Positions 1 through 38,149 of a DNA stretch of 64,000 bases are shown one piece after another. Within the stretch, counting starts at the first letter, position 1. Every line of letters starts with the position of its first letter. Origin of the DNA: Psammoneis japonica (lineage: Eukaryota); assembly GCA_008632985.1 (NCBI GenBank), contig QPGO01000010.1, forward strand, positions 806,001-870,000, read 5' to 3'. A model generated the notes under the pieces. It was not told where the DNA came from and made no database searches. It was given only the letters and a program-made list of their open reading frames with translations. The position numbers were made by a program, and so were the translations under genes.

Positions 1-1
1 G

Positions 2-17511: not shown

Positions 17512-18779
17512 TTAGCTTGCTTCGGTGACTTTCCTTACTTCGATATCGTCAATTTTGACCCTTAGAAGCGGTGGTCCGGAGTTTTGTCCAGGAATTACTC
17601 CTTTGATACCTTTCTTTGTAGGAAGGCTTGCTAGTCTCGCCACTACCGCCATTGATGCATCATCTATAATCTGCCCAATGACCCTTCTGCCTTCTCTGTC
17701 CATGCTGCTAACGGGAGCCGCATAATCTCAAACGCTGTCCCGACCATGCAGAGAGGTCAGGTGTCACTCACTCCAGAATTGAAACATGCTTCTTACATCC
17801 ACGACTTACCACTTGCGAATGCTTCATCCTCTGACTCCAAACCGCTTCCACTATAACCGAGCCCATTACCGGGTATAGAAATCAATCCGGCAGCGTCGTG
17901 TTTGCGCACACTAATTTCTTCTGCCAAGGCTTTGTCTCTTGGTCGCGGTTGTGCCAAAAAGTCATCACCAGCTTTTGATCTTCCTTTGGATCTAGCAAAA
18001 GCTGCCGATTGGGATGGAACGCCAAAGTCAAGCCGTTGCTGCGGAACAATTCCGTTCAGAATCCCTCCAACCAACAAGGACACGGGTGTTGTTAATCTGC
18101 CAAAAGAAGCGTCGTCGCTCATCGTAACAATGCCAACAGACGTCAAGAACTTTAGCATTTGATTCACACTATTTGGACAATCCTCCCCGTAGAGACCAAA
18201 CCTAATGGTTACCGATTCGCTTCGCCCGATATCCAAGCTCAATTGCACAAGGTGTGTAATTTTGCCAAATACCTGGGGCACGGGCTCCCCGACAAGTGGT
18301 GCATCCAACATTTGACCGTTTGGTCCACAAAGTGGATCAGTAGCATCACATCGATCCTTTCCTCCCCAATTCCAACCTACGGCGCCTATGAAGCAAGTAG
18401 TATGCAAAAAGAGAAACCGCAAAAAAAAAAGTGAGCAGAACTACAGAAGAAGGTATCTGGAAAATACTGAATGCGTCTCCGATAATCACTCACCATCCCA
18501 TTGACCAATCTCTAAACAGTTACCCGCCTCTCTGCACTCCTTTTCTGCGCCTCCAACAGCACGTTCCACAGCTACAGACGGTGGGCTTGGAAGCAGCACC
18601 AAAGATCCACCACCCAACAGAAGATTGCCAAGGATGCGTCGCCGGTCGGACGATGATCCTTCAACCATGTTGAGCGCACAAGAAGATTTTCGTTTCGATA
18701 GTTGACTCGTCGTCCATGCTGAAATAGATAGAGCATGAAAAGTCAACAAGGAGAATAAACTCCGCGAAATCATCGTCAT
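17512..18779 (-). CDS. Cyclophilin-like (PPIase-fold) protein, probably thylakoid-lumen targeted (3 exons)
   Basis: Signal peptide + SA-W, twin-Arg SDRRRIL and a hydrophobic stretch; ITHLVQLSLDIG...IRFGLYGEDCP; RRVIGQII...PLLRVKIDDI. Confidence 0.7.
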
Positions 18780-21509
18780 GTTCAAATGTTGCAACAGTAT
18801 ATTAACAACAACCGCCATGAGCACTGGCACTGGGCACTGAGCACTGAGATACCATAGGGCCCTAGTACATGATGAATGCTGAGGATGGACAGACGGCATG
18901 CAAGGGCGAACTCGCTCGCTCGCTCGCGTCGCTCGCTCATTCACTGCGATGCTGGCTGCTCGCTGTGGTAGACTAGCCCCACGCAAGCTACAGGACAGTT
19001 TTGGCTGCTGTTTTAGCATGTACAGCAGGGCCCTACATGCCCTAGAGTGGCTGTGCTTGGCCTGTTGTCTTGCCGATGATGTGACAGGAACCGATTCAAT
19101 GTCTGCCATGATGGTCGCAGGGTCTTTTGTTGCAAAGATGCTCGCAAGTCGATCACGTGAAATGACAGCAGAGCAACACGGCAATCAAGAAAGGGTGGCC
19201 GCCCAACACCCACCAAAAACTTCCAAGCACGTTGTGATGACCACACTTTTTTGAGCTGCTTCCACTGTCCCCACCTCTTTTTGCTGTCCTCAATCCTTTC
19301 ATCTTGTTTGCGTTGTCCCTCATTTCCTCTTCCCTGGAATTTGCACTCTCTGACGATTCTCTGGTTTCCAGTGAGTGCTGCATCTTCTTTCTCCAGTGAG
19401 CTGGTCTTGTTTGTGCTGGCTGTTTCCTTCACCACTGTTGTTTGCAGCTCCAGTGGGGAGTGTCATGTTCTTTGCCAATTGCCCCATCCACAACAATGGG
19501 TGGGGCATTTCCCATGACTGCTGTGTGCAGTGCCCAGCATTGTCTCCACCGCCACATCTTGTGCGCAGCAGTTTCCATCTGCTCTGCTGCATCCACCCCT
19601 GTCACTGCTGTCTGAGCATTGCCATCTGCCACATCCACTGCTTCCACTTCTTCTTTTTTCACCATGTGTCAGCAGCAGCTGCCTCAGTCATGTTGATCAC
19701 AACACTGCAGTCTGCGGCCGGCGAACTTGTGTTTTTTGTCAATCTCCATTGCAGCAGCAACTGCTGCCATGTTGCTCCTGCAAGGCAACACTGATGTGAG
19801 AAAGAGCAGCACACATGCCATGTGCCGCCAACCACTGATTTTGTGCTCACCTTCCCCTGGAGCATTGCCGCTCTCAGCATCGTGCCCGCAGCTTGTGTTG
19901 CTGTCTTTTTCTGGCTTTTCCACCACGTTGGCCATCAGTTGACACCTCACTTCTTCCAGCTGCTTGGTGCTTGTGTCTTGTTCACACTGTTGCTCCATGA
20001 CCATCATGCGTGCTGTTGTCAGTGCGGCCATGGAATTCTTGTGAATCTTTTTCACCAAATGGGCGTCATCACCCAATCCTGAAAATGCATTGTGCAACAG
20101 TTCTGGCACTTGTCACATGCAGATGGGTTCCATGGCATGGCATGGCATGACATGCCAGTTGAGCACCTGCTTGCTTCTGCCACACACCTTGTCCAACAGA
20201 CCCTGCTTGACTGAATTTGCAATCCCGGAAAAACAACCAGCTTTGTGTGTGCTGCCATCTTTGCCTGGCACAACCATGATTTGAAAGTTGTTTTGTTTCA
20301 TGTGGGCCTTTTGCACCCCCACTGTCAGTGTCTTGCATGACTTGGCTTGGCCCACCATGTGTTGCACCTGCTTGAAAAATCTTGCTGCAGCTCCTGCACA
20401 GTCATCTGCCTTGATGATGCAGGTTGCTGTCCATCATGAATGCTGCCTTGAGACTCTTGAAATTCAACACAGGTGTCCCATCATCCATGTTCTTCACACC
20501 AGATTTGTCAGCAATCACAGGCATGATTGCACGCCACGCACTGTTGAGCTGGCGACAGTTCTTGCAGCATGCCTCAATTGTTGCTTTCTCTTGATTCTGC
20601 TCCTCTTCTGCAACCACTTGCTGGTGCATGGTGTCACACACCCAAGACACATTTTGGCCAGCATTGCATTTTGGCCTGGATTTCACACAACTTCTTGGTG
20701 TGAACTTTGTGGTGTTGTTCTGTGCTGTGGGTGTTGCACTGTGGCAATGGGAAGCAGCAAAGAATTCTCCCACATCCCCCTGGGGAGACTCAGCCAGTGG
20801 ATGGAGATTGCGCTGCCATGGACGTGGGAACATGGTGGCTCGTCATTTCCACAGAGTGCTTTCCTGTGCACTGCTTGAAGACAACAGCACATGCGCACAA
20901 TGTGGCGACAATGTGAGAACACCCCTTGCCATCTGTTGCCAGTTTGGGGGCAATGACATGTTTGCAACATTTGTGACTTGACAATGTGCAGCTGCATTTT
21001 GTGCTCATGCTCACCCGCCACATTGTTTTGCGTGTGTTCCTTGCAGACACTGTCTCTGTGTTGTTGTTGTGGGCTGCCCTGCAAGCAATTTTGTTTTGAG
21101 GTCATTGCCATTTTTTTGTGTGACGTTTGAAATGCTGTGGCTGTCATTGCGCTCTGTGGTCACAGCGCAATTTCTGTGCATCCTCAGCCCCTTCTGATGC
21201 ACCGCCCAGGCACCGTGCAAATGTTGCTCAAAGAAATGTTGTTTTTTGTTGCCACAGTTTCTTGACTCATTTCACAGGCACACTTTCACATTGATGTGGC
21301 ACTTTGAATTTTTTGTTTGATCATCTCACACTCAAAGCCACCGTTGTGGCACCAGCCCAAATGGCCAAAAAATGTGGTCCCGTGCTGACCACATTTGGCA
21401 ATGACCCCAGTGACCACATCACATTGCATCGCAGTGCACCTCTGTTCTTGTCCACAATGCAGCCACAGGCAGCAGGGTTTTCCCTTGCACTCAGCTGCCA
21501 TTTGTGATG

Positions 21510-21512
<3 letters not shown>

Positions 21513-21598
<86 letters not shown>
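21513..21598. repeat. (TG)43 microsatellite
   Basis: Perfect dinucleotide run. Confidence 0.97.
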
Positions 21599-21600
<2 letters not shown>

Positions 21601-22942
21601 ACATCATGCATTGTTGTCATGCCATTGTCTGGAGCAAAAATCCAGCTCAAATGCAGAGAGGCAAAAAGCACTGGAGTGCCTTGACCCAATCACAAAGCCT
21701 TGATGACTCAATTTGTGATGGAAGTGGCAATGGAACAATCAACGTGGCAACAAACAAAACACAGCAAGGTTTGGCACAGGGTTGGCAGAGATTTCTTGGG
21801 ACAAAAACCTCTCCCACCTTGAGCTTTTGAGAAGGAAGGACACTTTTCTTGTGGCCATCACCAACAACGCAGCTGCAGAAGATCCTTCTGACAACGCATC
21901 AGAAATTGTGCACCTGATGCCACACAGGGGGGGTGCCAAAATGCCACACAGGAAAGCGCGGTTTGCTGCAAAACAACAGCTCATTTCGCAGATGATTGCA
22001 ACGCCGGGGGGGGGGGGGGGCAATGTGAATGACTTGCCAATGGAGCGTGCATCAGATTTTGTGTCATTTGGTGAGGATGCCATTGGGTGCAAGAATGACA
22101 TTTAAACTGCTTGAGTGGGCAGTCATGAAAATGAAGATGCGCCAGCAGCGTGTGATGAGCCCACATCGGTGCCAACAATCTTGTTGATGATGGTCATGAT
22201 GAGTCCAAAAGAACAAACCCACAAGGTCAGGGAAAAAATGGATGGAGACATTTTAGAAGAAGAAACGTCCTTGGGCAACAAAGAGACGTCAAAACTGGAA
22301 ACACCCAACAATGAGTGAAACCAAAAAATGTCAAGAAACCTTCCCAAAAAGTGCAAGCCAGAACACATGTGAAATGTTTTGATGCTGGGGATGGCACACT
22401 CACCTCTCAATTCATCCACTCCCATTGAAAGCGCAAAGGAGGCAATGCTGGAGACAAAAGGCTTAAAAAATGTGGGCAGGGATGCAGTGAGAGGTTTCTT
22501 GCAACCAAACAACCTGTTTGGTTGATGTTTTCATGGCATCCAATTGTGGCAAACAAGGGCAATGTCAACTCTCCACAACACATGGATGCACATTTTGGTG
22601 GCCTCCATCATTTGGAAATTGGACAGCCTCTCAGATGCCAAATGAGCTCCAGTTTTGAACAGACAGCATGGGGCCCTTGCAACTCACCACCATTTTGGCT
22701 CAGTGAACACTTGGTGCAAGGCGATGTTTTCAAACACAGCATTGTTGGATTTGGACATGCCAGCAGGGCACCACTCCTGAAGGACAATGGGTCAATCATC
22801 CTTCCATTTGACAAAGAGGTGGCCACCCAAAATCTCAGCATGAAGCACCTGTGTTGTTTGCATTGCAACGCTGTGCATTTGAGAGAATCCAAGTTGCCAG
22901 GAAAGAACAATCTGTTGAGATGAATGCAGAGATTGGACCCAG

Positions 22943-23393
22943 TGCAGCATGCATGCAGACAAAAGGTTGTTTTTGTCACGCCCTTTGTGACATTTAAAGG
23001 CTGCAACACGTCGCCGTGACACATTGACTCTTGTCAGCAGCTGTGTGTTGCACTCCTCCCCATGCATCGCGCGTCCATGCGGCTCTTTACCAACGTGCAC
23101 TGACACTGCACGGTTTTGGCGGAACAGTGTGGGTGCGCACGAAGGAACACACAGAACTGCACAAAGTTTTGCGCGTTCGACAGTGATCAACGTTGCTGCA
23201 GACAACTCCCACTCAGGGTTTCGAACCCCTGGCCTCCTGCCCAATGGTTGCGATGAACCACTCCGCTGTGAATTCATTCATGATGCAGCATGCATGCAGA
23301 CAAAAGGTCATTTTTGTCACACCCTTTGTGACATTTAAAGGCTGCAACACGTCGCTGTGATGCATTGACTCTCATTGGCAGCTGCACATTGCA
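22943..23393 (-). mobile_element. Non-autonomous miniature LTR retrotransposon (TRIM), 451 bp
   Basis: 110-bp TG...CA direct repeats at 22943-23052 and 23284-23393; 4-bp TSD CCAG (22939-22942, 23394-23397); minus-strand PPT GGGGAGGAG abutting the LTR at 23053-23061. Confidence 0.85.
23203..23276 (-). other. tRNA-derived segment (Pol III A/B boxes) inside the TRIM
   Basis: Minus strand CAGCGGAGTGGTT (A box if CA<-TA) and, about 30 nt later, CAGGGGTTCGAAACCCTG (T-arm/B box hairpin); anticodon arm not recognisable. Confidence 0.5.
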
Positions 23394-25749
23394 CCAGTGC
23401 TTTTTTGTGAAGTTTTTGACAAGAACAACCAACCAGAGTTGCCAACTTGTTGTGCTGCAACTCAGCAGATGTTGCTGCAGAAATCTAAACTTGGTCAACA
23501 TGTGAAGAAGGAACAGGCCAAAAAAATGCTGGACACTGAATCTGTTTGCATTGCACAGCTGTGAAAGAAGCCAAAACCTCTTTCAACAAGCAAGACAAAG
23601 AAACAGCATGGCTGCAAGTCCAGAACACCAGCCAATGAGGAGAACATGGGGCTGCAACGAGCAAATGTGAGTCCAGTCATTCATCACTGGTGACGAGTCA
23701 CAATGACTCACAATGCATGCACCCCTCATCTTTCCAATGTGCCTTTCCTTGTCACCAACCATCTTCCAATGAAATGCTTTGCCAATGATGCACAACCAAG
23801 CACATTGTTGATCCCCCTCCCCCGCTTGCATTTGTGGTTGAATCACAGGAATTTTTGTGACAGTGCTGCTGTGTCCATCAACAACTCTTGCACTGGTTTA
23901 GAAGATGAAAGCAAGATGTGCTGTTTGCAATGAAAAACTGAGTGAGCACTCATGGAATGAGGCGCACAGCCCAAACAGGGAAACTTTGGTTGCCATGAAC
24001 AAGGAGATTGACAAAGAGATCTGGAGCTCCTTTGGCGCCATTGATGCAGGCTGGGTGACAACATTGTGCTCCGCAAATGCAATCAGCATGGCCTTGTCCC
24101 TCTGCAACAGAATTTGCACATCAATGATGCAACCCACTCCATTTCAAGATGCATCTCCAAACTTGCATGCATTGAAAAGCACCCAGACAGAGCTGCACAT
24201 TGTCAGTTTGGCACGCACAACTCAACTCAGCAGCACACAGCAACCACAGCACAAGAATTTTGCAGACTCACATGTGTTTGACAACGCCCAAGGAATTGGT
24301 GCTCACAAGAGATTGCAGTCATCTAGAAAACCGAGACAATCCATCACTGCCAACTGTGGTCAATGTGGACTCTGTTCTTGCCAGCAATGGAAAGCGATTG
24401 CTGGAAGAGCTCTGTTCCATCATGATGAAGTGGAGCACCCCACCAAGACTCAAGGAACACTTGCATCACCAACTTGTTGTTCTCCAGTCAGTGTGCCCAG
24501 TCTCTTGAGTGCACAAACTTGCCAATGAAGGGGAAAATGAAAGCAAAAGACAGCATCAACAAGCTGAGTTTGGATGTCCAATCAGCTCTTGCAGAAGCGC
24601 CACAGTCCACACATGTTGCTCTTGCCAACATGACAGGGAAAGGAATGGCATGTTCAAGGATCATTGGGTGCCAAAGGACCCACTGTGCTTGGAAGAACAA
24701 CAAGATTTTGAGAAGGCACTCAGCACAGGAAGGAGCAGAGGTTGTGTCAGAGCATTGTTTTGAGATGCTTGCCATGAACATGACTTGTGTTCTTGGTGAG
24801 GAATGGGGGGGCACATTGTGGAAGAAATGCACAGCTGCAATTGATTGCAAGGCAGGCTGTGGCACAACAATTGATGTGCCCAAGGTGGACACAACCACGC
24901 AACCTCATTTCACTGGTTTGAGAACAATGATCTCTGCGATGATGACAAAACAAATCAGATGGTTGAGTTGCTGGAAAAAAGGCACAAACAGTTGGCAGAG
25001 AGTGATGCCACAGAAGAAAAATGAAGGGAACATTTTTTGTGGGTGAGGAGGGAATCACAAAATTCTTGCTTGGGCTGCTGTGTTTTTTTCAAATGCACAA
25101 AGGAACATTTGTTTTTGAAACAATGGTGGATGCCAAGAACTTTGCACTGCACCTTGCAGCAGTGGGCAGCTGATTTTGGTGTTTCTGGCTAACAATGGTT
25201 TTTCAATCACAGTCAAGTTTTCAAGAAATCAGTTTTTAGACCACTTTCTCACCCTCCATGAGGTGCACAAGATGCATCCTTCCCTGTGCACAGCAAACTG
25301 TGCAACTTGGAAGCAAAGCACACAAGCCACAATTTGAAAGAAAGAAAAAGCAAGCACTTGAAATGGCACAGCTTCACCAGCAACAAATCATTGCAGAGCA
25401 CATTCTGATGTCATCTCTTCAGTGGTGGGCAATCATCACTGGGTTTTGGAGTTTGATTTGGGGGCCACTGGCTTTTGGCATTGGGCTTTCTGTTGGAGTT
25501 TCCAAAGAGTGCCGCTCTGGATTCCAAGTCACTTCACATGCATCACAGAGCAAACAAAGTGGCTGCCCTGTTTCCATGCTCATCCCAGCTGCCATGCAGG
25601 TTTCCCAAGTGGCTTTTTTGCAGCAACCAAAAAGGGTTGGTGTTCATGAGTGCACAACAAGCAACACAAGATTTTTAGAAATGGTCAACCCAACTTGTTG
25701 AATGAACTGAGGTGACAGGTGACAAGCAGCATGCTGCTGCTCATTCCCA

Positions 25750-27800
25750 GTGCCATTCACCATGCAAGTCAGGTGCATGAGCCATTGGGTCCAATCACAC
25801 TCCATTCAGTCAGACCCAACAACAATGCGGCATGCCAGAAGAGCTGGTGGGTCAGCCACCTCATGCACAAATTCTCCACTTTTGTCAAGGAGAGGCAAGA
25901 AGAACATGCATTCCCTCACAAGACTTGGGTTGTTCTTGAGATTTTCCCACTTGTCTGTGGAAAATTGCATTGCATGATTGAGTCCAAGGCACTTGGCACC
26001 AACACGAGTGGTCATTCGGTGCAGTTGGAAAACAACCTGGTGCATGTCACACTTGCAACAAGGAGCTGTGTTAGACTCAACCAATGCAGTGATGAGATTT
26101 CTGTTTTTGTGCAAGAGTCCTCCACAACCGCCCCAGCCATCAAATTGCCATTTGCCACAGCTTCTTGGAGAAAGCAGCATTGCATTCCCACATGCAGCAT
26201 TGGTCATCAAGCTTTCTGACAGGCTGTGGTTCTTCAACATGGAAGTGTGTTTGCAGCACACTGAGAATGCAAAAATTGATGATCATTTCCTGCTGACAGC
26301 AACCACCCTTCATGCAGCATTGTTGGAACAACTGGCTTGAGGTGGCACAGAAATCCCTCCACCCTGCCACTCCCTTCCCAGCACAAATGCAAGGGACCAA
26401 AAATGCTGGGTGCATTTGGAAGATTTAGAAGAGACAGGAAATTGTTCTTGCCTGTGAAAAAGCAGTCTTTGGTGACTGTTCTTGGCTTGTCATCAAGCAC
26501 ACAGAGCAAAGTGACAAGAACATTTTGATTTGCTGGTCCATCTCTTTCACAATCTCTGGTGTCATCTGGTTGGCTGGCTCTGGTTCCCAGTGCACTTCAT
26601 GCTCCATGTCTGCCAGGCAAAGCAGTGCCTCTCAAACAACTGATCTGCCCTCTGAGTTTGCTGTTGCTGTGCTTCTTGCACTTTGACCATGGACAGCAAA
26701 ACTTCTGAGCCTTGGGCAAAGTTGTTGCCAAACCTGCAACAGAAGGCAGAGTGCATGTGTTGCAACCTCAACCAGTGTCTGACAAAATCCTTCATGGTTG
26801 TCTTCACAATGCCTGGAATCTGCCAGAAGATGCACCATGATGTTGAGGAAAATGAATGTGTCAATGCCCAAATTCCCATGGAATGTGGCACAAGTCACCC
26901 ATGCCATCAGCATCAACACAGTTTGCAAGGTGGTTGATCTCATCACCGCTGAATGAACAATCCTTCAAAAACATTTTTGTGGTCTCTGTTGTCCACTCCT
27001 CTGATGAACACAAGTCTTTGTGGTGATCTCTGCTGCCTCACTGAACAAGTTGAAGTTTTGCATGTAAATGGACTTTTGCAGATCATTCCCTGGGTCAGAT
27101 GCAGCTGATGCTGGATGTGAAGATGGTGTGCTGCGATCAAGCAGGGAAGCACCAGGACCATCCATGTCACAATCAGCACAGGAGCCGTTGGGGCAAGGCA
27201 CATTTAGACCATCAAGATGTCTCTCTCTGCTTGGAGTGGAGTGTGCATGTTGCCAACAAGCAACTGTGAAAGCAGGAGGTGTGAGTTGAAGATGAGAGCC
27301 TTGCTTGGGACAGTCTTGCAACATGGCAAGCAGCTCTGCTGCTGCTTGAACCATGGTGCCAGTCTTGTGACAGCAAAGTTGGTGAGGATTGCTTGGGTCA
27401 CACAATTGGTTGAGTTCATCATGGAAGCAACCCCACATCAGCTGATGGCCAGTCCTTTTGTTGCCAAGAGAAAACAAAAATGAGTTGTTGTTGGTCTGCA
27501 ATCAACCATCACAACTTCAGCATGCATTGAAGTGAGGCTCAATTGTTGGAAAGGGTGTGTGTCATCTGCCCACACAAACACTGGGAGAACTGGCACAGCT
27601 GATGGGGTGCCACTCAGTTGAGTGGCAGCAACAATTTGCTGTGCTTGCTCAGTCTGACAGATGGAGCTGGTTGCACTGTCCTCTGCTTTCTCCACCGGCA
27701 CAATGAGTGGTTCAATGTTGCGTGACAGTCCAAGCACACATGAGACAGCATCTGAAACAAAGAGTGGCATGCATGCCCATGCATGTCAATGCCAACAGGT
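25750..27800 (-). pseudogene. Decayed CMC/EnSpm(Plavaka)-like DNA transposase
   Basis: Ordered remnant motifs across frames: VFVWADD, LQDCPK, GIVKT, NFLSLLNLP...FGPLHLCWEG...EGF...KP; boundaries approximate. Confidence 0.5.
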
Positions 27801-29234
27801 GTTGGCAGATCAGCGCACATGCTGGCCCACTTGCCCCCCAGAGTGCATGAGCATGCACCTCTTATGATGTTGGTGAGTGCAGGGTGTGTGCAGACCATTG
27901 TGTCTGTTTCAGGCAGATTTGTGATGCTGCAGATGAAGCTGCTGGGTGGCCAATGCAAATGAGATGATGGAAGGAGCTGCACCATCATGGCTGGCTTCAT
28001 CATCTGATGAATGTTGCAACAATGACAGCAAATCATGCTGGTCATCTTAACTTGCTGGAGTGACCAGGCCACCAAATGTTCAACTTTGCTGCCCAAGTCT
28101 CCACTTGAATTGCCAACAAATCATGCCATGGGAGCACCCTCAATGTGAGAAAACAACAAGGGATCATCATGCATGAGCACAAATGGGGCAGGAGAAGAGC
28201 TGGCATCTTGGGTCACCAAGAGCCAATGGGTGGCATTCATGCCAAAAAAACCTGGAGGAACAGAGCCAACATTGTTGCCATCTTGTGAGGGGCCATTGAA
28301 TGATGAAAAATCACCATCTTTGAATGAAGCAGGGGAGGCAACAACTGTGCTGGCTGAAGCAAGAGCAGGGTGGGTGCAGCAGTGGCAATTTTCATTGTGG
28401 CAGAGGAGAGCACATTGCTGAGACCTTGAGTGAAAGCAACCCACAACTGGTTTGCAAAACTGTTGGCATGAGTCACAAGCAAGTGTGGCAAAAACACCAA
28501 GCAGATGTGGTGCGTCCCCCACAAAGAAAATGAAGAAACCAGGGAAAATCGCCAAACCCGCCAAGGTGCACTTCCCACTGGTGTCTGCCACATGTGTGCT
28601 GCAATTGGGACAATCTTCAAAATAATTTGGTGCATTGTGACTGCCAAGGCCCAGCAAAGTGCAGGAGAAACAGTTGGCATGAGCGACAGCCCAGAAGGTG
28701 GAGCGCCAGCATGCCACTAAGATCAGCATCAGAGCACGATGCCATCATGTGCATCACAGCAAAACACAGTGTCAGCCAGCAGTCCAGTGAGTTGGACACA
28801 TTGTGGGGTGCACTGGCAGCACAAATGGAAGATGTGTTTTCAAAGGGTTGCAGTGTGTGCATCACAGGCAACGGGGGTGAGGAAGCAGCAGGTCACGAGC
28901 TCCTCGCTGCAGGCAGGGGGGGTGAGTGGGGGAAGACTCTGATCCAGATGAGGGGCACACCACTGGTGTGGGGGAACAAGTGACATTTGTTGCTGGTGTG
29001 TGGGGAATGAATTTACTGGCAGGGCCCATTGCAGGTAAAATGCCAGAAATAAGAAATGAACACTGTAACAGGAGAGGGAACCAGCAATGGCGCATGCATG
29101 CAATAAGTTTGGTGGCGGAAAGCACGCGCGCTTGTATCCGGTAAGACCGCGCCCACAAAAAACTTGCCTCAGCCCTCATACCGTAGCCCTCCAGCATCAG
29201 CAACAAAAAACATTGAATAGGCCAACCGGTGTAT

Positions 29235-29521
29235 GAAAAGAACCCACAATGGCGGTCGTTGACTGTGACCATGCGTGACCACGTGGTCACGCTCGCGTGA
29301 CCGCCGTGACCACGTGGTCACGAACGATTGAGAAACGGTCCTCAGAAGAAGTTTTCAAACGGAGCGCAAAACGTGACAAACGCATCTGCTCGAACCATAT
29401 GAACGCATCTGCTCGAACCATGAAAAAACTCGATGTTGCCACACACTGCCCGTTACCACAAGTCATTCATTGACAACTGAAATGGTCAAGATCGAATCCC
29501 AGCGCCAAAGGGAATGCAGGA
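29235..29521 (+). repeat. Direct duplicate of 30587-30857 (upstream region + first ~13 codons of the 30818 ORF)
   Basis: Near-identical from GAAAAGAACCCACAATGG to GGGAATGCAGGA, with an internal ~22-bp re-duplication. Confidence 0.9.
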
Positions 29522-29726
29522 TCCTCCCTACCGTGACAGAATGAGCTGTTCCTTACGTACAGTAGACGCAGCAGTTGTCGCTACCTGCCGCTCAGTCCAT
29601 TCATTGTAATGAATTGGACGGATTTGGGAGAATGTTGGCACTGCAAAGACTAAACTAAATTTATGTTTATGAGTATGAACGCAAATCGCTAAAAGCCATG
29701 CCACGATGATTAGGAATAACTAAGTA

Positions 29727-29851
29727 TAGTCAAGCTCTGGCTCTCTAGATAGGAGTGCGCAGTAGGAGAGGCTGAATGCCAGGATTGAATAGTCAAGCTC
29801 TGGCTCTCTAGCTAACAGTGTGCAGTAGGAGAGACTGAATGCCGAGATGAA
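29727..29851. repeat. 63-bp tandem duplication
   Basis: TAGTCAAGCTCTGGCTCTCTAG...GCAGTAGGAGAG.CTGAATGCC x2. Confidence 0.85.
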
Positions 29852-30625
29852 GCTTTTAGAGTTTGAGAGAGACAGAGAATTCGACAAACAAGGATTGTCT
29901 TGGACGGCTCTTGGTTTTACGCCCCGCAATCGTTGTTTAAATTATGTTGGTCCTTCGAGCTAAACAACCGAACGCACCCAATACCGTTGAGGCATCAATT
30001 TCAATCCTGAGTTTTTAAAATGACTGCAAGAGGAAAACACAACTTTGGTGAGCTTCTCTTGAAGTGTTCCCGCGTCAAGGATGAGGTACATTGGAAGCGG
30101 CGTCCGTAGTCGGCGGTTCGGCTTCCACGGGGTAGTGCTTCTTTGAGCTGCTTGCAAAGCTCGGTCTGGAGCTTTTTATCCTTCCAGAGTTCGCTGCTGC
30201 TATTCTTGAGACGATCAGCCTTGATTCCACGAAGTTTCGCCGACTAAACAGGCAATTTGGATCCCGCGGGCAACGAAAGCAGAGTGCGCCCTGCACTGCG
30301 AACACCGTCGACGATGGCATCACGTACACCGTTTTCTGGCAAGCTGCTTCCCCTGCCACTCGTAGAAGGCGTAATTGTTCGAGTGTTAGGCGTTGCACAC
30401 ATTGTAGCGGAAAATACGGAAGCCCCGGGAGCCGTCTAAAATTGCCATCGTCATCGGCATCAAATTCGGGCGAAAAAAATTGAAAATTGAAAATATCGTA
30501 CCTCTAACGCACAGACAGACAGAAGTACAGTACCCTACAACTACCAGTAGAGCACACTGTATTTTGTGTATTGATTTACTCGCAACGAAAAGAACCCACA
30601 ATGGCGGTCGTTGACTGTGACCATG

Positions 30626-30674
30626 CGTGACCACGTGGTCACGCTGCGTTTTCCAGCGTGACCACGTGGTCACG
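30626..30674. repeat. Nested palindrome: 21-bp perfect inverted repeat whose arms each contain the 18-bp palindrome CGTGACCACGTGGTCACG
   Basis: CGTGACCACGTGGTCACGCTG-cgttttc-CAGCGTGACCACGTGGTCACG. Confidence 0.9.
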
Positions 30675-30817
30675 TGGTCACAAACGAGTGAGAAACGGTC
30701 CTCAGAAGAAGTTTTCAAACGGAGCGCAACACCTGACAAACGTATCTGCTCGAACCATGAAAAACTCGATGTTGCCACAAACTGCCCGTTACCACAAGTC
30801 ATTCATTGACAACTACA

Positions 30818-31840
30818 ATGGTCAAGACCGAAGCCCAGCGCCAAAGGGAATGCAGGAGCCGCAAGCAGGCAAAAGATCCGAATTACAACCGAAAGCGTGC
30901 TGACAAAGAAAAGAAGCGTCGCAAGGAGAAGAAGGAGCAACAGTTACGGGATCCACTCGCCATGTCCGATTTGATTTTGAAGCACCAAGCAAAGGAGCGA
31001 GAAGACTTTCTGGAGCACCAAGCAAAGGAGCACAAAGACATTCTGGAGCACCAAGCAAAGGAGCACAAAGAACTTTTGTCAAGGGTGTCTAAACAAGGCA
31101 ACAAAGCTCGAAAGTATGTCACTAATTTGTTTGGTATGGCCGTGGTGGGTCCATACGGTTCCGATCGGGTATTGAAGCCCAATACTAAGGAGAATCAAGA
31201 TCATGTATACGATCTGTCAGAAGGCGAGATTCGTGAGAACGAAACCTTGTGCGAAGACGGATATACTACAGATTGTGAAGAGCAGAGCCATGCCAGTGAT
31301 TTCAGCAGGTTCAATCGTCGCCGGAAACGGAAATGGGGTCACGACAACATCACTTTCCCTTTGACGGAGGATTCTAAAGCGATCCATGTAGATTTCTATA
31401 ATGACAGAGACCTCTCTACAGTTGGATCAAAGGTTTGCCACGAGGCCTTTGAAACATACGTGCCCGGTTTGAAACGCACGAGCGGCCTTGGCAAGATCCT
31501 CCAACAAGTCGAGGATCGATTGGAACCACCAGAGCTTTTGGAGGACCTGCAGTACATTGCCTGGGGTCGTAGCAAGCTTCAGCACCAGAAGTGGGTGTAC
31601 CGCTTGGACGACCGGCGGATGTACGCAGAAACTTTAATGCGTGTCATGCATCACCTCTGCCCCAACTGGACCTTGCATCCATACAACCCCGAAGCGGAAC
31701 GCCTAGAAAAACTTCTCGATGATCGAGACGCAAAGATTGCGCGGCTTGAGCAAGAGCTCGCCCTAGCCTACCAAGATGATTTCGAGTGCGAGTACGGCCG
31801 ACCGGGGAAGCGCCGCCGCAATCAGGGATCCTATTACTAA
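30818..31840 (+). CDS. Hypothetical protein (340 aa) with a basic N-terminal helix, three 11-aa repeats and NLS-like clusters
   Basis: Intronless ORF; EAQRQRECRSRK...EKKRRKEKK; L(K/E)HQAKE x3 (33-bp period); RRRKRK, KRRR. Confidence 0.6.
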   Translation: MVKTEAQRQRECRSRKQAKDPNYNRKRADKEKKRRKEKKEQQLRDPLAMSDLILKHQAKEREDFLEHQAKEHKDILEHQAKEHKELLSRVSKQGNKARKYVTNLFGMAVVGPYGSDRVLKPNTKENQDHVYDLSEGEIRENETLCEDGYTTDCEEQSHASDFSRFNRRRKRKWGHDNITFPLTEDSKAIHVDFYNDRDLSTVGSKVCHEAFETYVPGLKRTSGLGKILQQVEDRLEPPELLEDLQYIAWGRSKLQHQKWVYRLDDRRMYAETLMRVMHHLCPNWTLHPYNPEAERLEKLLDDRDAKIARLEQELALAYQDDFECEYGRPGKRRRNQGSYY

Positions 31841-33959
31841 TTATCTTCATCTGCTGATGCTCCTACTGTACTGTAATAATGTTTCTATAACCAACACCGT
31901 TAGATGACTGCATCATTCGTGTTTCATTTGCTTTCGATTACATGTGTTGTCTCACACTATCGTGAAGTAAAAAGAGTCAATAGCGGATAACTTTTCGATG
32001 AAGTATAAACCTTGTCCCGCCGATCGTTATGATGAAAATTGAATTCATGACAGCTTGCTTGAGAGTCAGGAACCCAAAGTTTGCCGTCTTGACCCTGCTT
32101 GTGGGCTGCTTGATATCCTGTGCATCCAAAAAGGATGATTCAGAGGAGTCGGAGATGGAATCATCTGAATCACTTTCTTCGTGGTAACTGTCTGAGCTGT
32201 CCGCGCTTGTGGTAAAGAAAGACGGCGGAGGAGACGAGGCCGGTTGACCCTCTGGAATTTCTGGTCAAACTTGCAACCCACCCTCCTCACTGAATTGCCG
32301 CTCCCTGGTGGGTCTAACCGACGGATTTGGATTATTCGCATTGAGTATGTCACTCCCGATGTCCAACGAAGCGTGTCGGACATGTCTCTGCTGATGGTGC
32401 ATGATTCTTGCTGTCACAGGGGATCCCAACGCCATTGGTGATGCAGCTTGCCAGAAGTCGTTGTCAGCGGTGGCGAGATAAGTGTAGAATCGTTTCTTCC
32501 AGTGTTTCCAGTCACATACAAACACGATCCTTGACTGTTCACGCCACTACCACTGAACTGGCTTGGCTCTGACTGTTGAGAATCATAGCTTCCTCCAAGA
32601 TGAACTGGACCTGGTAACTGACTGTATTCCGCGGGCTCCGGTCTCTGATGCAATCCTGGTGTCTCCATATTACCGGGAGGCCTATGGCTCTTTTCGGCAC
32701 CCCCATACACCGCCTGGTGGGGTTGAGTGTTCGCATTCTGCGGCCCCTCAGAAATTAATTTCGATGCAGACGATAATGATGAAGGGCTGTTCACAGAATT
32801 GATTTTGACACCAGCCTTTCGTGTTTCATTCGACGACGCTTTCCAATGCTTTCAGTCGATTACAGTTGTTGATGCACGTGTCAACTCGATTGGCCTTTGC
32901 TTCTTCTCGAGAAACGTCATAAGCGACACTGCAAGGTTAGAGCCGAGAAACAATCCTATACGGGCAACTCCAAAATAGATGAAAAACGAGCATATGACCT
33001 TTGCGCCATCTGGTACCGAGGACATCAGGTGTGCTACTCTTACCTGCAGGCCAAAGATACGAAGCGATGCAATCACGTTGTAGATGAAGATATAAAAAGC
33101 GAGATAGCCAGCAGGGCTGTTTTGTGTTGGAGCTGCAGCTGTGTCGAAAGATGCTATCTGACGTGCTTCACAACGAGGACAAACAAACACCGAAGTTGTT
33201 GCCAGCGCCGGCGGTGGCGAGGTTACTGTAGAGTCGTTACCGTATAATAGACTGTGTATTCGCTCTTTCCCGATTCACGTGCTCATTCAATGCTTTATTA
33301 CCAACGCCTTCTCCTGGGTCTGAAACCATGAAAGCCCAACACTTTGTTGCCGTAGGGCTTAAGTGATAAAGAAAGGCAGCGGCATCATCCGGTATATTAT
33401 TTTGAGTTCAAAAAGTATATCATTTCCATAATGATTCATCGTGCCATTTATATGCTTCCGCTCAAGGTCGTTGTGCTGAAGCCAATTGTCGTGATCCTTC
33501 GACGAAACTACCACCTGCACCATGTTCACTTTCACCTGGTTTACATGCGATAAAGTGGTATTGTGTATAGTCCAAAATGGCGGCTGTCCCTAGAGCTGAG
33601 GCTGGCTGTCCCGCCTGCCTGAAAGCGAGGTTCCCGCTCGAGTTGGGGACGGCCCGACATCTGCGCGTGGTGACAGTGGTTGTCGGGTAGGCGATGATAT
33701 ATTTGCAGAGCAGATTCATCCAGGTTACCAACCAGTTGATGATTCTGTGGTCTGAAGAAGTGCTCAGTGTTTCCGATAAACTGTCTTGAGGTGAAAGAAT
33801 GGTATTTCCCGTCATGGACGGTTGTTCTGAACCCTCTTTGCTGGCCGACTGCTCGCTCACAAAGCAGTGGCTGCCATCGTCTTCCTCTGCTGGTTGACGA
33901 CCGTTTCCACTTGTTTATCGCTCATTGCTCGACTTAATCACACAAACATTTGTAACATT

Positions 33960-34590
33960 TGTTTTTCTCATCAGAGGAACTGCCAGTGCTTTCGTCGCCT
34001 CCTTCTCCTTCTTCAGAAGCGTTTGTGTTTGAAGATTGACTGATGGAACTTGAGACTTTGCTCAGGGGACAAAACCTTTCCCTCCTGCAACTCCACTTTG
34101 CTCATGAAAGCTCAATGAAAAGCTCAATGCAATTGCAAGAAATGCAGGCAACAAAACCGAACAAGGAAGGAGCGCGGTGCTGCTCTCGCGCGAGACTTGT
34201 GGAGTTCCACACCGCTTGTGGTGGCGGCATTGTGCAGAATGACTTGTGAACGAGTTTTTGTTCAAAGTTCACCAACACAGCAAGAGAGCTCCTTGTAATT
34301 CGAGAAACGCCATGAAGAGAAGACAGCAATAACTTTGGACTCTTCAATCTGCGATGGCCGCCATGGCGATGGCTTTGCATGCATGATGAAACACATCAAA
34401 GCGCGATCATCGGAGGGGTGCGCGCCGGTGCGGATCTCTCCGTGATTGGTGCTTGTGCTTTCAGCGCGAAAACCGCGCGATTTACTGACGCACTGACGAC
34501 TGCCACCTGCCAAAGAAAGTGGACGACGACGATGTTGTGAGGAAAAGCAAAAAGCAAACTCTGAGGAAAGAGAAACGTTGACAAGCTTTG
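33960..34590. other. Small TpA-depleted patch (probable repeat remnant)
   Basis: About 3 TA in 630 bp; CpG retained. Confidence 0.5.
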
Positions 34591-34646
34591 AGTTTTTACT
34601 TGGTGCAACGTATCCTTGCTATTGAGTAAACGGCAAAGATTCGAAA

Positions 34647-35976
34647 ATGGTGCGAATTTACGTTTCAGTTGCCGCGTTGTCGATACTTCTTTTGGCATCA
34701 TGTTGTTTCAATGTTGTGGATGCCTTTGGAATGGTTGGTCATGATGTTGTTGCGCGGAGAACGCCACCAACCCGCTTGAACATGGCTCTTGACGAACAAA
34801 TGGAAGCTCGACTGGAAGGTATCTGTCGTTCCTACCAAGCGCTGACGGAGCGATTAGGTGATCCTGATGTGATTGGAGATTCCAACCTGCTGAAACGAGT
34901 CATGTCTGACCGTGCCCAGAGCGAAGAAGTGGTGCTGGCGTATGAGCAGTATTCAAAGCTCAAGGAAGAATTGGAGGGTGCGACTGAACTCTTTCAGGAA
35001 GCGGGTGATGATGCAGACATGAGAGAAATGGCAAGGGAAGAAATTAAAGAGATTGAGCCACAGTTGGAAACGCTCGAAGAAAAAATCAAGGTTCTGTTGC
35101 TTCCCCGTGATCCGAACGATGACCGTGACGTGATGGTTGAAATTCGTGCCGGTACCGGAGGGTCGGAAGCCAATATTTTTGCCGGTACGTAGGTTGTTTG
35201 AAAGTAGGCTATGCTGCAGAGCTGCAGCCTTTTGCTAACTTGGTTTTGTCTAATCAATCTCACGCATTCTCTCAGGTGACTTGGCTGATGTCTACAGAAA
35301 GTATTTTACTGCAAGCGGTTGGCAGTCGACAATAATCGATTCATCTCCTGGAGATGATGGAGGATACAAGTCGGTCACAATGGATGTCAAGGGTGATATG
35401 GTGTACTCGAGAATGAAATGGGAAGCGGGGGTGCATAGGGTACAGCGTGTGCCAGCGACAGAATCACAGGGCCGAGTCCACACGTCTACAGCAACAGTCG
35501 CTGTCATGCCAGAATGTGACGAAGTGGATGTAAATGTTGATCCGAAAGATATCGAAATGTCCACCATGCGATCCGGTGGAGCTGGAGGTCAGAATGTAAA
35601 CAAAGTTGAGACGGCTGTCGATCTGTTGCACAAACCCACGGGCATTCGTATCAAGTGCACGCAGGAACGTAGTCAACTCAAAAACAAAGATCTGGCCATG
35701 AAGATGCTCATGGCAAAGCTCTATGACATTGAAAACGAAAAGCGTGACATGGAAGAGCGTGAGAGACGAGGATCACAGGTGGGAACAGGTGGACGGAGTG
35801 AAAAGATTCGCACCTATAACTGGAAGGATTCAAGATGCTCCGATCACCGACTTGGACAAAATTTCCCTCTCAGTCAGTTTCTCAATGCTGATTTAGGCCC
35901 AATCATTGATGCGATGATTGCCAAAGATCAAGAAGAGAAATTGAGACAGCTGAGTGAAGAAAGCGCAGCCGTGTAG
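34647..35976 (+). CDS. prfA: Plastid-targeted peptide chain release factor 1 (2 exons)
   Basis: Signal peptide + [32 protein letters not shown] (PxT); [20 protein letters not shown]; intron 35185-35275. Confidence 0.95.
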
Positions 35977-37967: not shown

Positions 37968-38149
37968 GAGCCACTGATGTTGATTTTGTGATGGGTGATA
38001 GGTGTGATGATGTGATGGAACAAAAACAATAATCCAAAACACGTGGTGTCACTTGTACCACGGCCTCACGTAGATCCTACTTCCTTCGTACATCTTGGTA
38101 GACAATTTACGAGGAATGATCCATTGTCGGTCGACGATCAGACTAGCTA

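Follow-up and report, generated by a model that had tools for sequence, protein, structure and literature searches.

Probable mutational erasure of TpA from silent transposon-derived DNA in a pennate diatom

We found that a 10-kb block within a 64,000-nucleotide stretch of DNA from the diatom Psammoneis japonica (the window) has lost almost all of its TA dinucleotides, as have three companion blocks. We consider it likely (probability about 0.75) that these blocks are silent, transposon-derived DNA of a pennate-diatom nuclear genome that has been rewritten by two context-specific transition processes. The faster process would change TpA to TpG or CpA (A:T>G:C, on either strand) nearly to completion, and because it would be confined to delimited chromatin domains, neighboring genes would keep normal TA. 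The slower process would change CpG to TpG or CpA, and its simplest source would be deamination of 5-methylcytosine on methylated transposons. Transposon genes would be inactivated by the replacement of tyrosine with cysteine or histidine, among other changes. At least three unrelated types of element have been hit: a DNA transposon, a copia LTR element and a SINE-like repeat. Judging from the sequences, the scarcity of TA arose by mutation and is not native composition.

Results

A 10-kb block with few TA dinucleotides

The main block (19044-29013, unstranded) was recognized by its composition. The TA at 19043 and that at 29014 enclose 9,970 bases with 20 TA, compared to 658 expected from base composition, or 388 from the TA observed/expected dinucleotide ratio (o/e) of gene regions in the same window (0.59). 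An earlier note on this DNA had counted about 18; the scarcity was real, and the exact count is 20. One run without TA spans 3,060 bases (19043-22103). In the main block the o/e was 0.03 for TA, 0.20 for CG, 1.93 for TG and 1.92 for CA, compared to 0.59, 0.97, 1.21 and 1.13 in the flanking genes. That is, CpG was also depleted, alongside TA. The largest other shifts were in GC (1.27 vs 1.04), GA (0.90 vs 1.16) and TC (0.87 vs 1.10). The remaining dinucleotides were mostly near the values of the flanking genes, including AA (1.19) and TT (1.20), each 1.13 in the flanks. The pyrimidine-purine (Y-R) steps TA, CG, TG and CA sum to 254 per kb in the main block vs 242 per kb in the flanks. This approximate conservation is expected from transitions within Y-R steps.

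The borders are sharp, and this and the excess of TG and CA agree with the earlier note. On the left, seven TA in 18969-19043 are followed by none for 3 kb, and on the right there are nine TA within 29014-29184. The left rim (19044-19360) has no TA and 11 CG (o/e 0.57, a mild drop in CpG). The right rim (28500-29013) has two TA (o/e 0.08) and nine CG, with a CpG o/e (0.25) above that of the adjoining core (0.08). A perfect (TG)43.5 microsatellite lies inside the block (21513-21599, plus strand).

The main block had no match to Pfam, PHROGs or copia, and no protein family was recognized in it. Except for a nested insert (22943-23394), it had single-copy depth (52-73) in X1, a set of accurate reads with a word depth of ~66. 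Because there is no recognizable transposon or viral protein and the block is mostly single-copy, we infer its foreign origin from the companion blocks. The earlier note described the affected DNA as repeats; the main block is mostly single-copy today and may have been repeated in the past.

Contigs built from exact 31-letter words of X1 reproduced the TA-free sequence of the main block. One contig of 5,899 bases, from this read set that is possibly of the same sample as the assembly and whose library type is not on record, corresponds to positions 23367-29264 with one substitution and one indel. Neither restores a TA.

Direction of change in a DNA transposon and a copia element

The companion blocks, as the earlier note had reported, have the same loss of TA. 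One lies in a Tc1/mariner-type DNA transposon (38150-41595, minus strand), recognized by its terminal inverted repeats, its reading frame, DDE_3-like clusters and similarity to catalytic domains. The inverted repeats are 32 bases long (38150-38181 and 41564-41595). The reading frame runs from 41342 to 38322 and encodes a protein of ~1,000 residues, with one in-frame TAG (40752-40754). The relatives of the transposase are DDE_3-like clusters (Atlas), and its Z scores to the catalytic domains of Metnase, Mos1 and Sleeping Beauty were 15-16.6. Read depth (215-517) suggests about three to eight genomic copies. The element is flanked by TA on the left (38148-38149) and CA on the right (41596-41597), and the earlier remark that loss of TA would remove target sites used by Tc1/mariner elements is therefore apt.

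The transposon body (38304-41563) is eroded, with an o/e of 0.09 for TA and 0.72 for CG. We compared conserved columns of the transposase to 47 homologues. Of 19 conserved-tyrosine columns, 15 are now Cys (TGY; 8) or His (CAY; 7) in the window copy, three are Tyr and one is Phe; 220 of 275 other conserved columns are unchanged. The same treatment of the homologues gave 778 cells, of which 681 are Tyr, 14 His and 3 Cys. Tyrosine makes up 2.2-5.9% of the homologues and 0.37% of the window transposase. We also examined 80 related metagenome (environmental) loci, selected by conserved peptides and thus a sample that favors intact copies. TA o/e in these loci was 0.47-0.84, and none of the 80 was TA-poor. 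The normal tyrosine content of the homologues and the absence of TA-poor loci rule out an intrinsically TA-free element, a possibility raised by the earlier note. With the same bias toward intact copies, the absence of the signature from all 80 indicates that the process is not general in diatoms. Metagenome relatives with a CG o/e of 0.04-0.09 still had normal TA, so CpG decay occurs without TA loss.

One AT-rich end of the transposon (38150-38303) is uneroded. The 157 bases measured (38147-38303) contain 20 TA (o/e 1.10), several of them in RTAY contexts. An expressed Ldh_2 gene on the minus strand has its 5' end nearby, with the uneroded transposon end lying 100-250 bases upstream of it (Ldh_2 domain in the ORF at 37170-38048; a spliced X2 contig spans 36481-37994). 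Erosion is limited to domains, with sharp borders, and TA is kept near the 5' end of an expressed gene.

The 3' part of a copia-type LTR retrotransposon (1-1633, plus strand; RVT_2; RT/RNase H ORF at 2-1456) is partly eroded (o/e 0.28 for TA and 0.84 for CG). Its 15 conserved-tyrosine columns are now Cys in six cases, His in three, Tyr in five and Phe in one, and 240 of 264 other columns are unchanged. In 120 copia homologues, Tyr occupies 1,720 of 1,799 cells, His four and Cys none. The same TA rule fits other differences as well, namely I>M and, where the T and the A belong to neighboring codons (T|A>T|G), I>V, S>G and T>A. For the transposase and copia combined, conserved Tyr codons (TAY) are now TGY or CAY in 24 of 34 columns. 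The two strands were hit about equally (14 Cys vs 10 His).

Copies of a SINE-like insert and two older blocks

The insert nested in the main block (22943-23394, plus strand) is a young, high-copy SINE-like element. Its depth of 28,000-36,000, compared to ~66, corresponds to roughly 500 genomic copies. Direct repeats of 101 bases lie at 22943-23043 and 23284-23384, and there is a tRNA-like T-arm near 23215-23231; neither Rfam nor a tRNA search gave a call. TA is eroded (o/e 0.11) and CpG is largely kept (0.74).

We compared the window to other genomic copies. Among the 40 variants listed of 120, 34 of which fall in two repeated elements, at least 14 have TG or CA in the window where other copies carry TA, and at least eight have TG or CA where other copies carry CG. 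At least two are TA in the window and CA in another copy, and at least one is CG in the window and CA in another copy; at least nine of those listed in the two repeated elements are other differences. Transitions account for 104 of 118 tallied changes between copies. The results with copies and with tyrosine codons establish the direction of change and its specificity for TpA. The earlier proposal of a change from TA to TG or CA on either strand, targeted to silent or repeat DNA, is borne out by the tyrosine replacements in two elements and by other copies that keep TA.

The other two companions are old TA-erased blocks. One (1634-3510) has two TA (o/e 0.02; CG 0.07), and its 259-residue ORF (1961-2737) had no matches among 1.84 billion representatives. 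The second (62245-64000) continues past the window end and also has two TA (o/e 0.02; CG 0.17). We found no sequence similarity between the eroded blocks, including after masking Y-R steps.

Order and context of TA loss

TA loss precedes CpG loss in young elements. TA and CG o/e were 0.09 and 0.72 in the transposon body, 0.11 and 0.74 in the SINE-like insert, and 0.28 and 0.84 in the copia fragment. In old blocks they were 0.01-0.04 and 0.07-0.25. Depletion of CpG in the blocks, a slower second process alongside the loss of TA, had gone unmentioned in the earlier note.

The flanking bases affect the loss, in the order RTAY > mixed contexts > YTAR. Of 43 surviving TA, 27 are in YTAR and one is in RTAY, compared to 17.9% and 29.7% in the flanks (p=9e-11). 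Tyrosine codons in RTAY were mutated in 16 cases and kept in one, and those in YTAY were mutated in eight and kept in seven (p=0.013). The informative mixed-context cases, small numbers behind a T-A-Y reading, split 10 to 3 (p=0.09). Tetranucleotide gains per kb were +16.4 for RCAR and +15.7 for YTGY vs +8.8 for RTGR and +10.1 for YCAY; the agreement with T-A-Y holds on two conditions, an even split of CpG decay between TG and CA and an original composition of the blocks like that of the flanks.

Discussion

Comparison with known systems

The earlier note knew of no eukaryotic process with this polarity, but one has been described. According to a preprint of 2026, integrated viral DNA in Bigelowiella natans undergoes TpA>TpG/CpA hypermutation, measured in mutation-accumulation lines (Mettrop et al., bioRxiv 10.64898/2026.01.13.699255). 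In its text, two viral insertions had 231 mutations, of which 230 were A>G or T>C; every GC-biased mutation was at TpA, and there are 124 TpA-poor clusters (bioRxiv 10.64898/2026.01.13.699255). To our knowledge, the signature has been reported only once before, in this unrelated alga. As described there, the change is, as here, exclusively TpA>TpG/CpA and regional, with normal neighboring host DNA; its long-term trace is likewise TA-poor, TG/CA-rich clusters, enriched as here for DDE and reverse-transcriptase domains and unannotated ORFs. The hosts differ, a diatom (Stramenopila) here and a chlorarachniophyte (Rhizaria) there, as do the targets identified, transposons here and giant-virus or virophage insertions in the preprint. 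Erasure is near-complete here (TA o/e 0.01-0.04), compared to the Rho of 0.45 that the preprint gives for an NCLDV region. The superimposed CpG decay and the preference for RTAY over YTAR also set the diatom apart, insofar as the terms "CpG" and "context" are absent from the preprint's main text (bioRxiv 10.64898/2026.01.13.699255). Finding the B. natans signature here places a just-described process in a second eukaryotic supergroup, acting on transposons. A TpA-erasing genome defense may be more widespread than known.

The outcome resembles that of fungal RIP: dense, context-specific transitions in repeated or foreign DNA, wrecked genes, and borders at the element or just beyond. The polarity is opposite. 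RIP is C:G>T:A, creates TpA and yields AT-rich DNA, whereas here TpA is destroyed and the GC content of the eroded blocks stays at 0.47-0.51. Decay of 5-methylcytosine accounts for the change of CpG to TpG or CpA, with old blocks at a CG o/e of 0.07-0.25, and further copies of the same transposon family show it by itself. It cannot remove TpA, and TA loss here is faster than CpG loss and separable from it. Thus, neither known process explains the TA loss, as the earlier note had argued.

Candidate enzymes and other explanations

Our leading guess for the enzyme is a TadA/ADAT-like DNA adenine deaminase. Tentatively, and at somewhat less than even odds, a TadA/ADAT2-like enzyme would convert adenine in DNA to inosine, reading 5'-T-A-Y-3' and being recruited by a silent-chromatin mark, not by element sequence. 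Inosine reads as G, and engineered TadA (adenine base editors) acts on DNA. The natural substrate of TadA and ADAT2-3 is U33-A34, with C35 for TadA, a T-A-Y-like context; we would treat this resemblance as a lead only. We know of no established natural activity of this family across double-stranded DNA.

It is possible, but rather unlikely, that thymine is the base attacked. A TET/JBP-type dioxygenase would oxidize the T of R-T-A in silent chromatin to 5-hydroxymethyluracil or 5-formyluracil, and mispairing of the oxidized base with G would give T>C, that is, TpA>CpA, or TpG on the other strand. This signature is strictly complementary to that of adenine deamination, and R-T-A mirrors T-A-Y. 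Because A>G on one strand is indistinguishable from T>C on the other, the sequence results fit both equally. In the telomeric repeats of trypanosomes, T that precedes A is replaced by base J; in dinoflagellates, TpA sites are enriched for 5-hydroxymethyluracil; and 5-formyluracil induces A:T>G:C mutations. However, oxidized thymines are usually weakly mutagenic and also give transversions, whereas here the Y-R sum is conserved and transitions make up 104 of the 118 differences between copies.

CpG-like decay of symmetric N6-methyladenine (6mA), deaminating to hypoxanthine at the TpA palindrome on silent DNA, seems improbable. It would account for TA and CG, two self-complementary Y-R steps, both becoming TG or CA in the same blocks. 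However, young elements have lost far more of their TA than of their CpG, the TA and CpG domains differ at the block rims, and the same transposon family elsewhere has CpG decay without TA loss. In addition, the 6mA known from eukaryotes occurs at ApT rather than TpA.

Error-prone repair patches in heterochromatin, made by polymerase-eta-like synthesis at WA motifs, are very improbable. Polymerase eta mutates A in TA and AA motifs, often A>G, but AA and TT are not depleted in the main block, transversion products are not enriched and the Y-R sum is conserved.

We give similarly little credence to a sequencing or assembly artefact in which base calling turned a modified base at TA into G or C. 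Strand-dependent miscalling of a modified A would mimic the mix of TG and CA, and the sole read set found may share its sample with the assembly. However, over 5.9 kb of the block no difference between the assembly and the X1 contigs (depth ~66) restores a TA, and where other copies have the corresponding sites, these reads do give TA. Elements also differ in their degree of erosion, which varies together with CpG loss, and the context bias of the survivors is unlike random polishing.

It is hardly credible that RNA was hyperedited from A to I (by an ADAR- or ADAT-like enzyme), reverse-transcribed and re-inserted. RNA editors typically act on an A preceded by U, as the preprint's Discussion has it (bioRxiv 10.64898/2026.01.13.699255), and one eroded element, copia, is a retrotransposon. 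However, the cut-and-paste Tc1/mariner element was eroded in place, including one flanking TA dinucleotide, and both strands were hit about equally. Long stretches without recognizable coding content were erased as well, and a purine 3' of the A is disfavored, the opposite of the preference of ADAR for 3'-G. Just as implausible are native composition, acquisition from a donor that lacked TA, and selection against TA. Each would account for the composition itself but not for the replacement of conserved Tyr by Cys or His in two families in which relatives retain Tyr, for the normal TA of relatives, or for the pattern common to unrelated elements.

TA is nearly absent from four sharply bounded blocks

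We found that the dinucleotide TA has been almost entirely erased from ~10 kb at 19044-29013 (the main block), a real and striking feature of this DNA. Every kb of 19001-29000 contains 0-4 TA, compared to 36 and 43 in the adjoining kb and 24-54 in most kb of the gene regions of the window (the flanks; extremes of 14 and 91). The last TA before the main block is at 19043 and the first one after it is at 29014. Twenty TA lie between them, and one TA-free run is 3,060 bases long. Base composition predicts 658 TA for this block, and the observed/expected ratio (o/e) of the flanks, 0.59, predicts 388. An earlier note on this DNA had described the loss of TA at ~19-29 kb, its sharp borders, an excess of TG and CA, and the same loss in three other places. 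Each of these descriptions holds, and the three further blocks are at 1634-3510, 38304-41563, and 62245-64000. CpG is also depleted in the blocks, which had gone unmentioned.

Strong departures of the main block from the flanks are limited to four dinucleotides: TA (o/e of 0.03 vs 0.59), CG (0.20 vs 0.97), TG (1.93 vs 1.21), and CA (1.92 vs 1.13). There are lesser shifts in GC (1.27 vs 1.04), GA (0.90 vs 1.16), and TC (0.87 vs 1.10). TA o/e is 0.53-0.63 in the stretches that make up the flanks. The sum of the four pyrimidine-purine steps (TA, CG, TG, and CA) is approximately conserved, at 254 per kb in the main block and 242 per kb in the flanks, the outcome expected from transitions within those steps. 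GC content is unchanged at 0.47-0.51.

A sequencing artefact, for example miscalling at modified bases, is a very improbable cause of the blocks. We compared the window to contigs made from exact 31-letter words (depth ~66) of a public read set, X1, whose library type is off record and which may come from the same sample as the assembly. X1 contains 95% of the words sampled from 18000-27999, and one X1 contig of 5,899 bases is the same as window 23367-29264 except for one substitution and one indel, neither of which restores a TA. The length and depth of the contig imply accurate reads, making miscalls unlikely, and X1 itself shows TA at the matching sites of further copies of the repeated elements.

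The block at 38304-41563 lies within a probable Tc1/mariner-type transposon

The block at 38304-41563 falls within an element bounded by terminal inverted repeats of 32 bases (31 matches) at 38150-38181 and 41564-41595. The element contains a transposase frame on the minus strand, from 41342 to 38322, of ~1,000 residues that aligns end to end with its homologues and is broken by a single in-frame TAG at 40752-40754. The transposase family had no sequence match in Pfam or PDB. An AlphaFold model of a homologue (mean pLDDT of 75.9) was compared to known structures. A plain Foldseek search with this model was weak (E of at least 0.037). VIA-align, run afterwards, matched the model to Metnase (Z of 16.6, rmsd of 2.8 A, 188/201 residues), Mos1 (Z of 16.3), and Sleeping Beauty (Z of 15.1); the next fold class had a Z of 10.5. 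An Atlas feature search indicated clusters carrying DDE_3. The protein is thus predicted to have a DD(E/D) RNase-H-like catalytic domain of the Mos1/Sleeping Beauty type, and, on the strength of the model, we read the element at 38150-41595 as a probable Tc1/mariner-type DNA transposon. Its left flanking dinucleotide is TA and its right one is CA; this fits, short of proof, a TA target duplication in which one copy has eroded. The family, with its ~1,000 residues, Tc1/mariner fold, and large insertion in the catalytic domain (window member at 38313-41342, minus strand), is common in aquatic metagenomes, with 320 confirmed loci, and is present in Fragilaria.

TA and CpG were lost by mutation in place

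We compared conserved tyrosine columns (codons TAY; Y, pyrimidine; R, purine) in two recognizable proteins to their homologues. In the window transposase, 19 conserved Tyr columns contain Cys (TGY) in eight, His (CAY) in seven, Tyr in three, and Phe in one. In 47 homologues, the same cells are Tyr in 681 of 778, His in 14, and Cys in three. Other conserved columns were mostly unchanged in the window copy (220/275). Total Tyr content is 0.37% in the window transposase and 2.2-5.9% in the homologues. The second protein is a copia RT/RNase H fragment, encoded by a frame at 2-1456, that shares 65-74% identity with the majority of 120 polyproteins (57-74% across them all). Its 15 conserved Tyr columns contain Cys in six, His in three, Tyr in five, and Phe in one; the homologues have Tyr in 1,720 of 1,799 cells, His in four, and Cys in none, and 240/264 other conserved columns are unchanged. 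That is, conserved Tyr became Cys or His in 24 of 34 columns in the two proteins together. In copia, the change of I to M matches ATA to ATG, three changes at codon borders match T|A to T|G, and the change of T to M and two of R to H fit CpG decay.

Relatives of the transposon in metagenomes were not depleted of TA. TA o/e was 0.47-0.84 and none of 80 loci was depleted, in a set drawn from the 320 confirmed loci via conserved peptides and leaning toward intact copies. The earlier note had allowed that such families might be intrinsically TA-free; these loci and the normal Tyr content of the 47 homologues contradict that. Relatives that had lost almost all CpG retained TA (CG o/e of 0.04 with TA o/e of 0.47, and 0.09 with 0.48).

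We also compared copies of the repeated elements within X1. Among the variants listed (40 of 120), 34 are in the transposon or in a short SINE-like insert in the main block. In 14 of the 34, the window has TG or CA where other copies have TA, and in eight it has TG or CA where other copies have CG. The window has TA where another copy has CA in two cases and CG where another copy has CA in one; the remaining nine are other differences. Transitions account for 104 of 118 of all tallied copy changes. Together, the Tyr columns, the metagenome relatives, and the copy comparison show that two processes, one converting TpA to TpG or CpA and the other converting CpG to TpG or CpA, have acted in place and independently on several copies.

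TA is lost before CpG

The loss of TA is faster than the loss of CpG. The younger elements have lost most TA and kept most CpG: o/e for TA and CG was 0.28 and 0.84 in the copia fragment, 0.11 and 0.74 in the SINE-like insert, and 0.09 and 0.72 in the transposon body. In the old blocks (the main block and those at 1634-3510 and 62245-64000), TA o/e is 0.01-0.04 and CG o/e is 0.07-0.25.

The SINE-like insert (22943-23394) carries a direct repeat of 101 bases at each end, with a tRNA-like T-arm at ~23215-23231 (stem CAGGG/CCCTG). It was not called as an RNA gene; a Rfam gathering scan and ARAGORN each found zero RNA genes in the whole window. Most CpG in this nested insert is kept and most TA is lost, indicating that the main block was still mutating after the insertion. 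The rims of the main block also separate the two processes. The left rim (19044-19360) has zero TA with a CG o/e of 0.57, and on the right CpG density rises from ~28500 while TA depletion continues to 29013. Thus, the exact borders are not common to both processes.

The main block is probably old mobile or foreign DNA

Searches of 87 ORFs from the main block and 15 from the other blocks against Pfam gave two chance-level matches, and 53 ORFs had no match in PHROGs. Probing by tblastn with 11 copia or transposase proteins yielded nothing in the main block but matches with E>0.1, and a copia polyprotein HMM, tested on every six-frame ORF, had no match there. In the block at 1634-3510, the longest ORF (259 residues) had zero matches in a full HMMER search of 1.84 billion representatives. 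A codon-usage coding scan of sequence with the pyrimidine-purine steps masked had too little power for calling frames. Self-BLAST of the window, unmasked and with those steps masked to one symbol, showed the four blocks to be dissimilar to one another, and in neither version was the main block bounded by an LTR or TIR; there were no internal repeats, even after masking. The main block contains a perfect (TG)43.5 microsatellite at 21513-21599.

By depth in X1, the main block is single-copy today outside the nested insert. The eroded elements that are known are present at ~3-8 copies (transposon; depth of 215-517 vs ~66) and ~500 copies (SINE-like insert; depth of 28,000-36,000). By analogy with these identifiable companions, we take the main block to be, probably, old and fully eroded mobile or foreign DNA.

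There are 48 ORFs of at least 100 codons overlapping 18000-30000, rich in Cys, His, Trp, and Gln. In TA-free DNA, TGA is the sole stop codon, so long chance ORFs are expected. Gene callers could annotate such ORFs as orphan genes, and eroded transposons evade homology-based repeat annotation.

Erosion stops near the 5' end of an expressed gene

One end of the transposon has escaped erosion. The segment 38147-38303 keeps 20 TA (o/e of 1.10), several of them in RTAY, the context in which TA is otherwise lost fastest, and erosion begins abruptly at 38304. The uneroded end lies upstream of Ldh_2 (minus strand), 100-250 bases away from the gene's 5' end. A second read set, X2, was compared to window 30400-38400. 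X2, labeled 'DNA?', behaves like a transcriptome: its contigs skip GT..AG introns of 87-91 bases at 35183/35275, 36789/36880, and 37134/37222, and spliced X2 contigs cover Ldh_2. We suggest that a chromatin domain, and not the sequence of the element, may guide the targeting. X2 cover is absent at 23.8-26.5 kb and 27.1-29.8 kb (main block) and at 38.5-41.8 kb, an absence that is no evidence for silence. Another copy of the SINE-like insert is covered by an RNA-like X2 contig.

Surviving TA reveals a flank preference

The TA remaining in the four blocks (n=43) are strongly biased in context (binomial p=9e-11). YTAR accounts for 27 of them (17.9% in the flanks), mixed contexts for 15 (52.4%), and RTAY for one (29.7%). 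Sixteen of the 20 survivors within the main block are YTAR. Tyr codons isolate the effect of the preceding base, since their TA is always followed by a pyrimidine. When that base was a purine, 16 had mutated and one was kept; when it was a pyrimidine, eight had mutated and seven were kept (Fisher p=0.013).

A rule in which the mutated A lies in 5'-T-A-Y-3' could account for the survivors and the Tyr codons, and a mirror rule, in which the mutated T lies in R-T-A, could account for them equally well. In mixed contexts, the T-A-Y direction was seen in 5/5 copy differences and 5/8 Tyr codons, that is, 10 to 3 (p=0.09). Tetranucleotide gains per kb were greater for RCAR (+16.4) and YTGY (+15.7) than for RTGR (+8.8) and YCAY (+10.1), an argument that presumes that CpG decay is split evenly and that the ancestral composition was like that of the flanks. 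We rate the three-base T-A-Y motif as suggestive only. The flank bias of surviving CpG was opposite to that of surviving TA: in the old blocks (19361-28499, 1634-3510, and 62245-64000) we counted 39 RCGY and 13 YCGR, whereas the flanks have 547 and 634 (p=5e-5).

Possible mechanisms

The blocks have undergone TpA-specific A:T to G:C transitions, on both strands, regionally, in place on DNA, and outpacing CpG decay. We put the probability that an A:T to G:C process at TpA acts in these blocks at roughly 0.75-0.8. The agent would be an enzyme that works on the TpA of DNA in silent chromatin. The leading candidate step would be deamination of A to inosine by a TadA/ADAT2-like enzyme, to which we give somewhat less than even odds. 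The natural context of TadA, U-A-C, resembles T-A-Y. Adenine deamination was also proposed in the main text of a preprint on Bigelowiella natans (Mettrop et al., bioRxiv 10.64898/2026.01.13.699255).

In the mirror model, a TET/JBP enzyme would oxidize the T at TpA; it fits the sequences as well as the adenine model does, and we consider it the less probable of the two by some way. Decay of 6mA is improbable, as the losses of TA and CpG differ in speed and in borders. Polymerase-eta-like repair, which targets WA motifs, is highly improbable: AA/TT is unchanged, the sum of pyrimidine-purine steps is conserved, and copy differences are overwhelmingly transitions. RNA editing of the ADAR type followed by retro-copying is scarcely credible: it would be restricted to sequences that go through RNA and reverse transcription, yet a DNA transposon has been eroded where it sits, on either strand, and so has a target dinucleotide beside it.

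Two familiar processes cannot explain the loss of TA, as the earlier note had argued. Fungal RIP is similar in outcome. However, RIP converts C:G to T:A, makes TpA, and enriches AT, whereas here TpA is destroyed and GC is maintained; the polarity is opposite. RIP is also triggered by sequence duplication. Here, most of the main block is single-copy today, other eroded elements are multicopy, and a direct repeat pair close to the main block keeps normal TA. Decay of 5mC by deamination resembles what we see in that CpG is lost and TpG and CpA are gained, but it cannot be the whole cause since it cannot remove TA, and the CpG-poor relatives keep theirs.

Comparison to B. natans and implications

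To our knowledge, well-characterised mutational genome defences are found in very few lineages (fungal RIP and vertebrate APOBEC editing), and all are cytosine-deaminating. A TpA-aimed A:T to G:C process has been reported once before, in one chlorarachniophyte, in the 2026 preprint (10.64898/2026.01.13.699255). The mechanism class favored in the earlier note is supported, and its claim of no precedent is out of date. As in B. natans, substitutions are confined to TpA, with TpG or CpA as products, and delimited regions of mobile DNA are hit while host genes alongside are spared. Unlike B. natans, the host is a diatom, from a different supergroup than chlorarachniophytes; the recognised targets are transposons (a Tc1/mariner element, a copia element, and a SINE-like repeat) and not viral insertions; TA erasure is nearly complete; CpG decay co-occurs; and a preference for RTAY over YTAR is seen. 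The words 'CpG', 'context', 'trinucleotide', and 'diatom' do not occur in the main text of the preprint, the supplements of which may hold context data. Openly readable full text yielded no account of diatom transposons losing TpA or undergoing A:T to G:C hypermutation; PMC9258296, considered as a prior report, is irrelevant, judging by passages of its text.

The preprint gives 211 mutations on 6,169 TpA over 3,132 line-generations and a de novo rate ~1000-fold over background in culture lines (10.64898/2026.01.13.699255). From the former numbers we calculate ~1e-5 per TpA per generation. At that rate, a rough extrapolation across species, loss of 97% of TA would take ~3e5 generations. A bolder proposal, which we regard as doubtful, is that one ancient enzyme system, guided by chromatin and common to diatoms and chlorarachniophytes, edits adenine (or thymine) of genomic dsDNA at 5'-T-A-Y-3'. 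This would be a mutational defence in vegetatively dividing cells, the mirror image of RIP, that erases every TA of an invader within ~10^5-10^6 generations, and its catalyst would be a natural A:T to G:C DNA editor of a new kind.

The diatom case adds another supergroup of eukaryotes to the one from which the process was reported, and extends its targets to ordinary transposons; diatoms are algae that dominate ecologically and are tractable genetically. It also supplies constraints for testing: RTAY is preferred to YTAR, TA is lost before CpG, and erosion has a boundary at an active promoter. With the signature in none of the 80 environmental relatives, a sample leaning toward intact copies, the process looks lineage-restricted, so presence/absence genomics could find the enzyme. 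A natural dsDNA A-to-G editor, if real, would interest genome engineers.

Other features of the window

Nuclear genes in the window encode PaO/Rieske, BRAP2-like, GH30, release factor, Ldh_2, and DUF6824 proteins. Among named relatives, those closest to the BRAP2-like protein come from pennate diatoms: Seminavis (52% identity), Nitzschia (47-48%), Phaeodactylum (47%), and Mayamaea (44%); the database searched had no identical match. With the Fragilaria relative of the transposase, these point to a diatom, and not Bigelowiella, as host. Just outside the main block, a pair of direct repeats of ~290 bases (29235-29524 and 30587-30860; 83% identity, 1.06 kb apart) keeps normal TA and CpG. The opposite extreme, TA richness, is found at 48001-49000 (o/e of 1.19, 86 TA) and 52001-53000 (o/e of 1.13, 91 TA). 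A 704-codon ORF at 45124-47238 contains a tandem duplication of 126 bases (45839-46096) with 97.7% identity.
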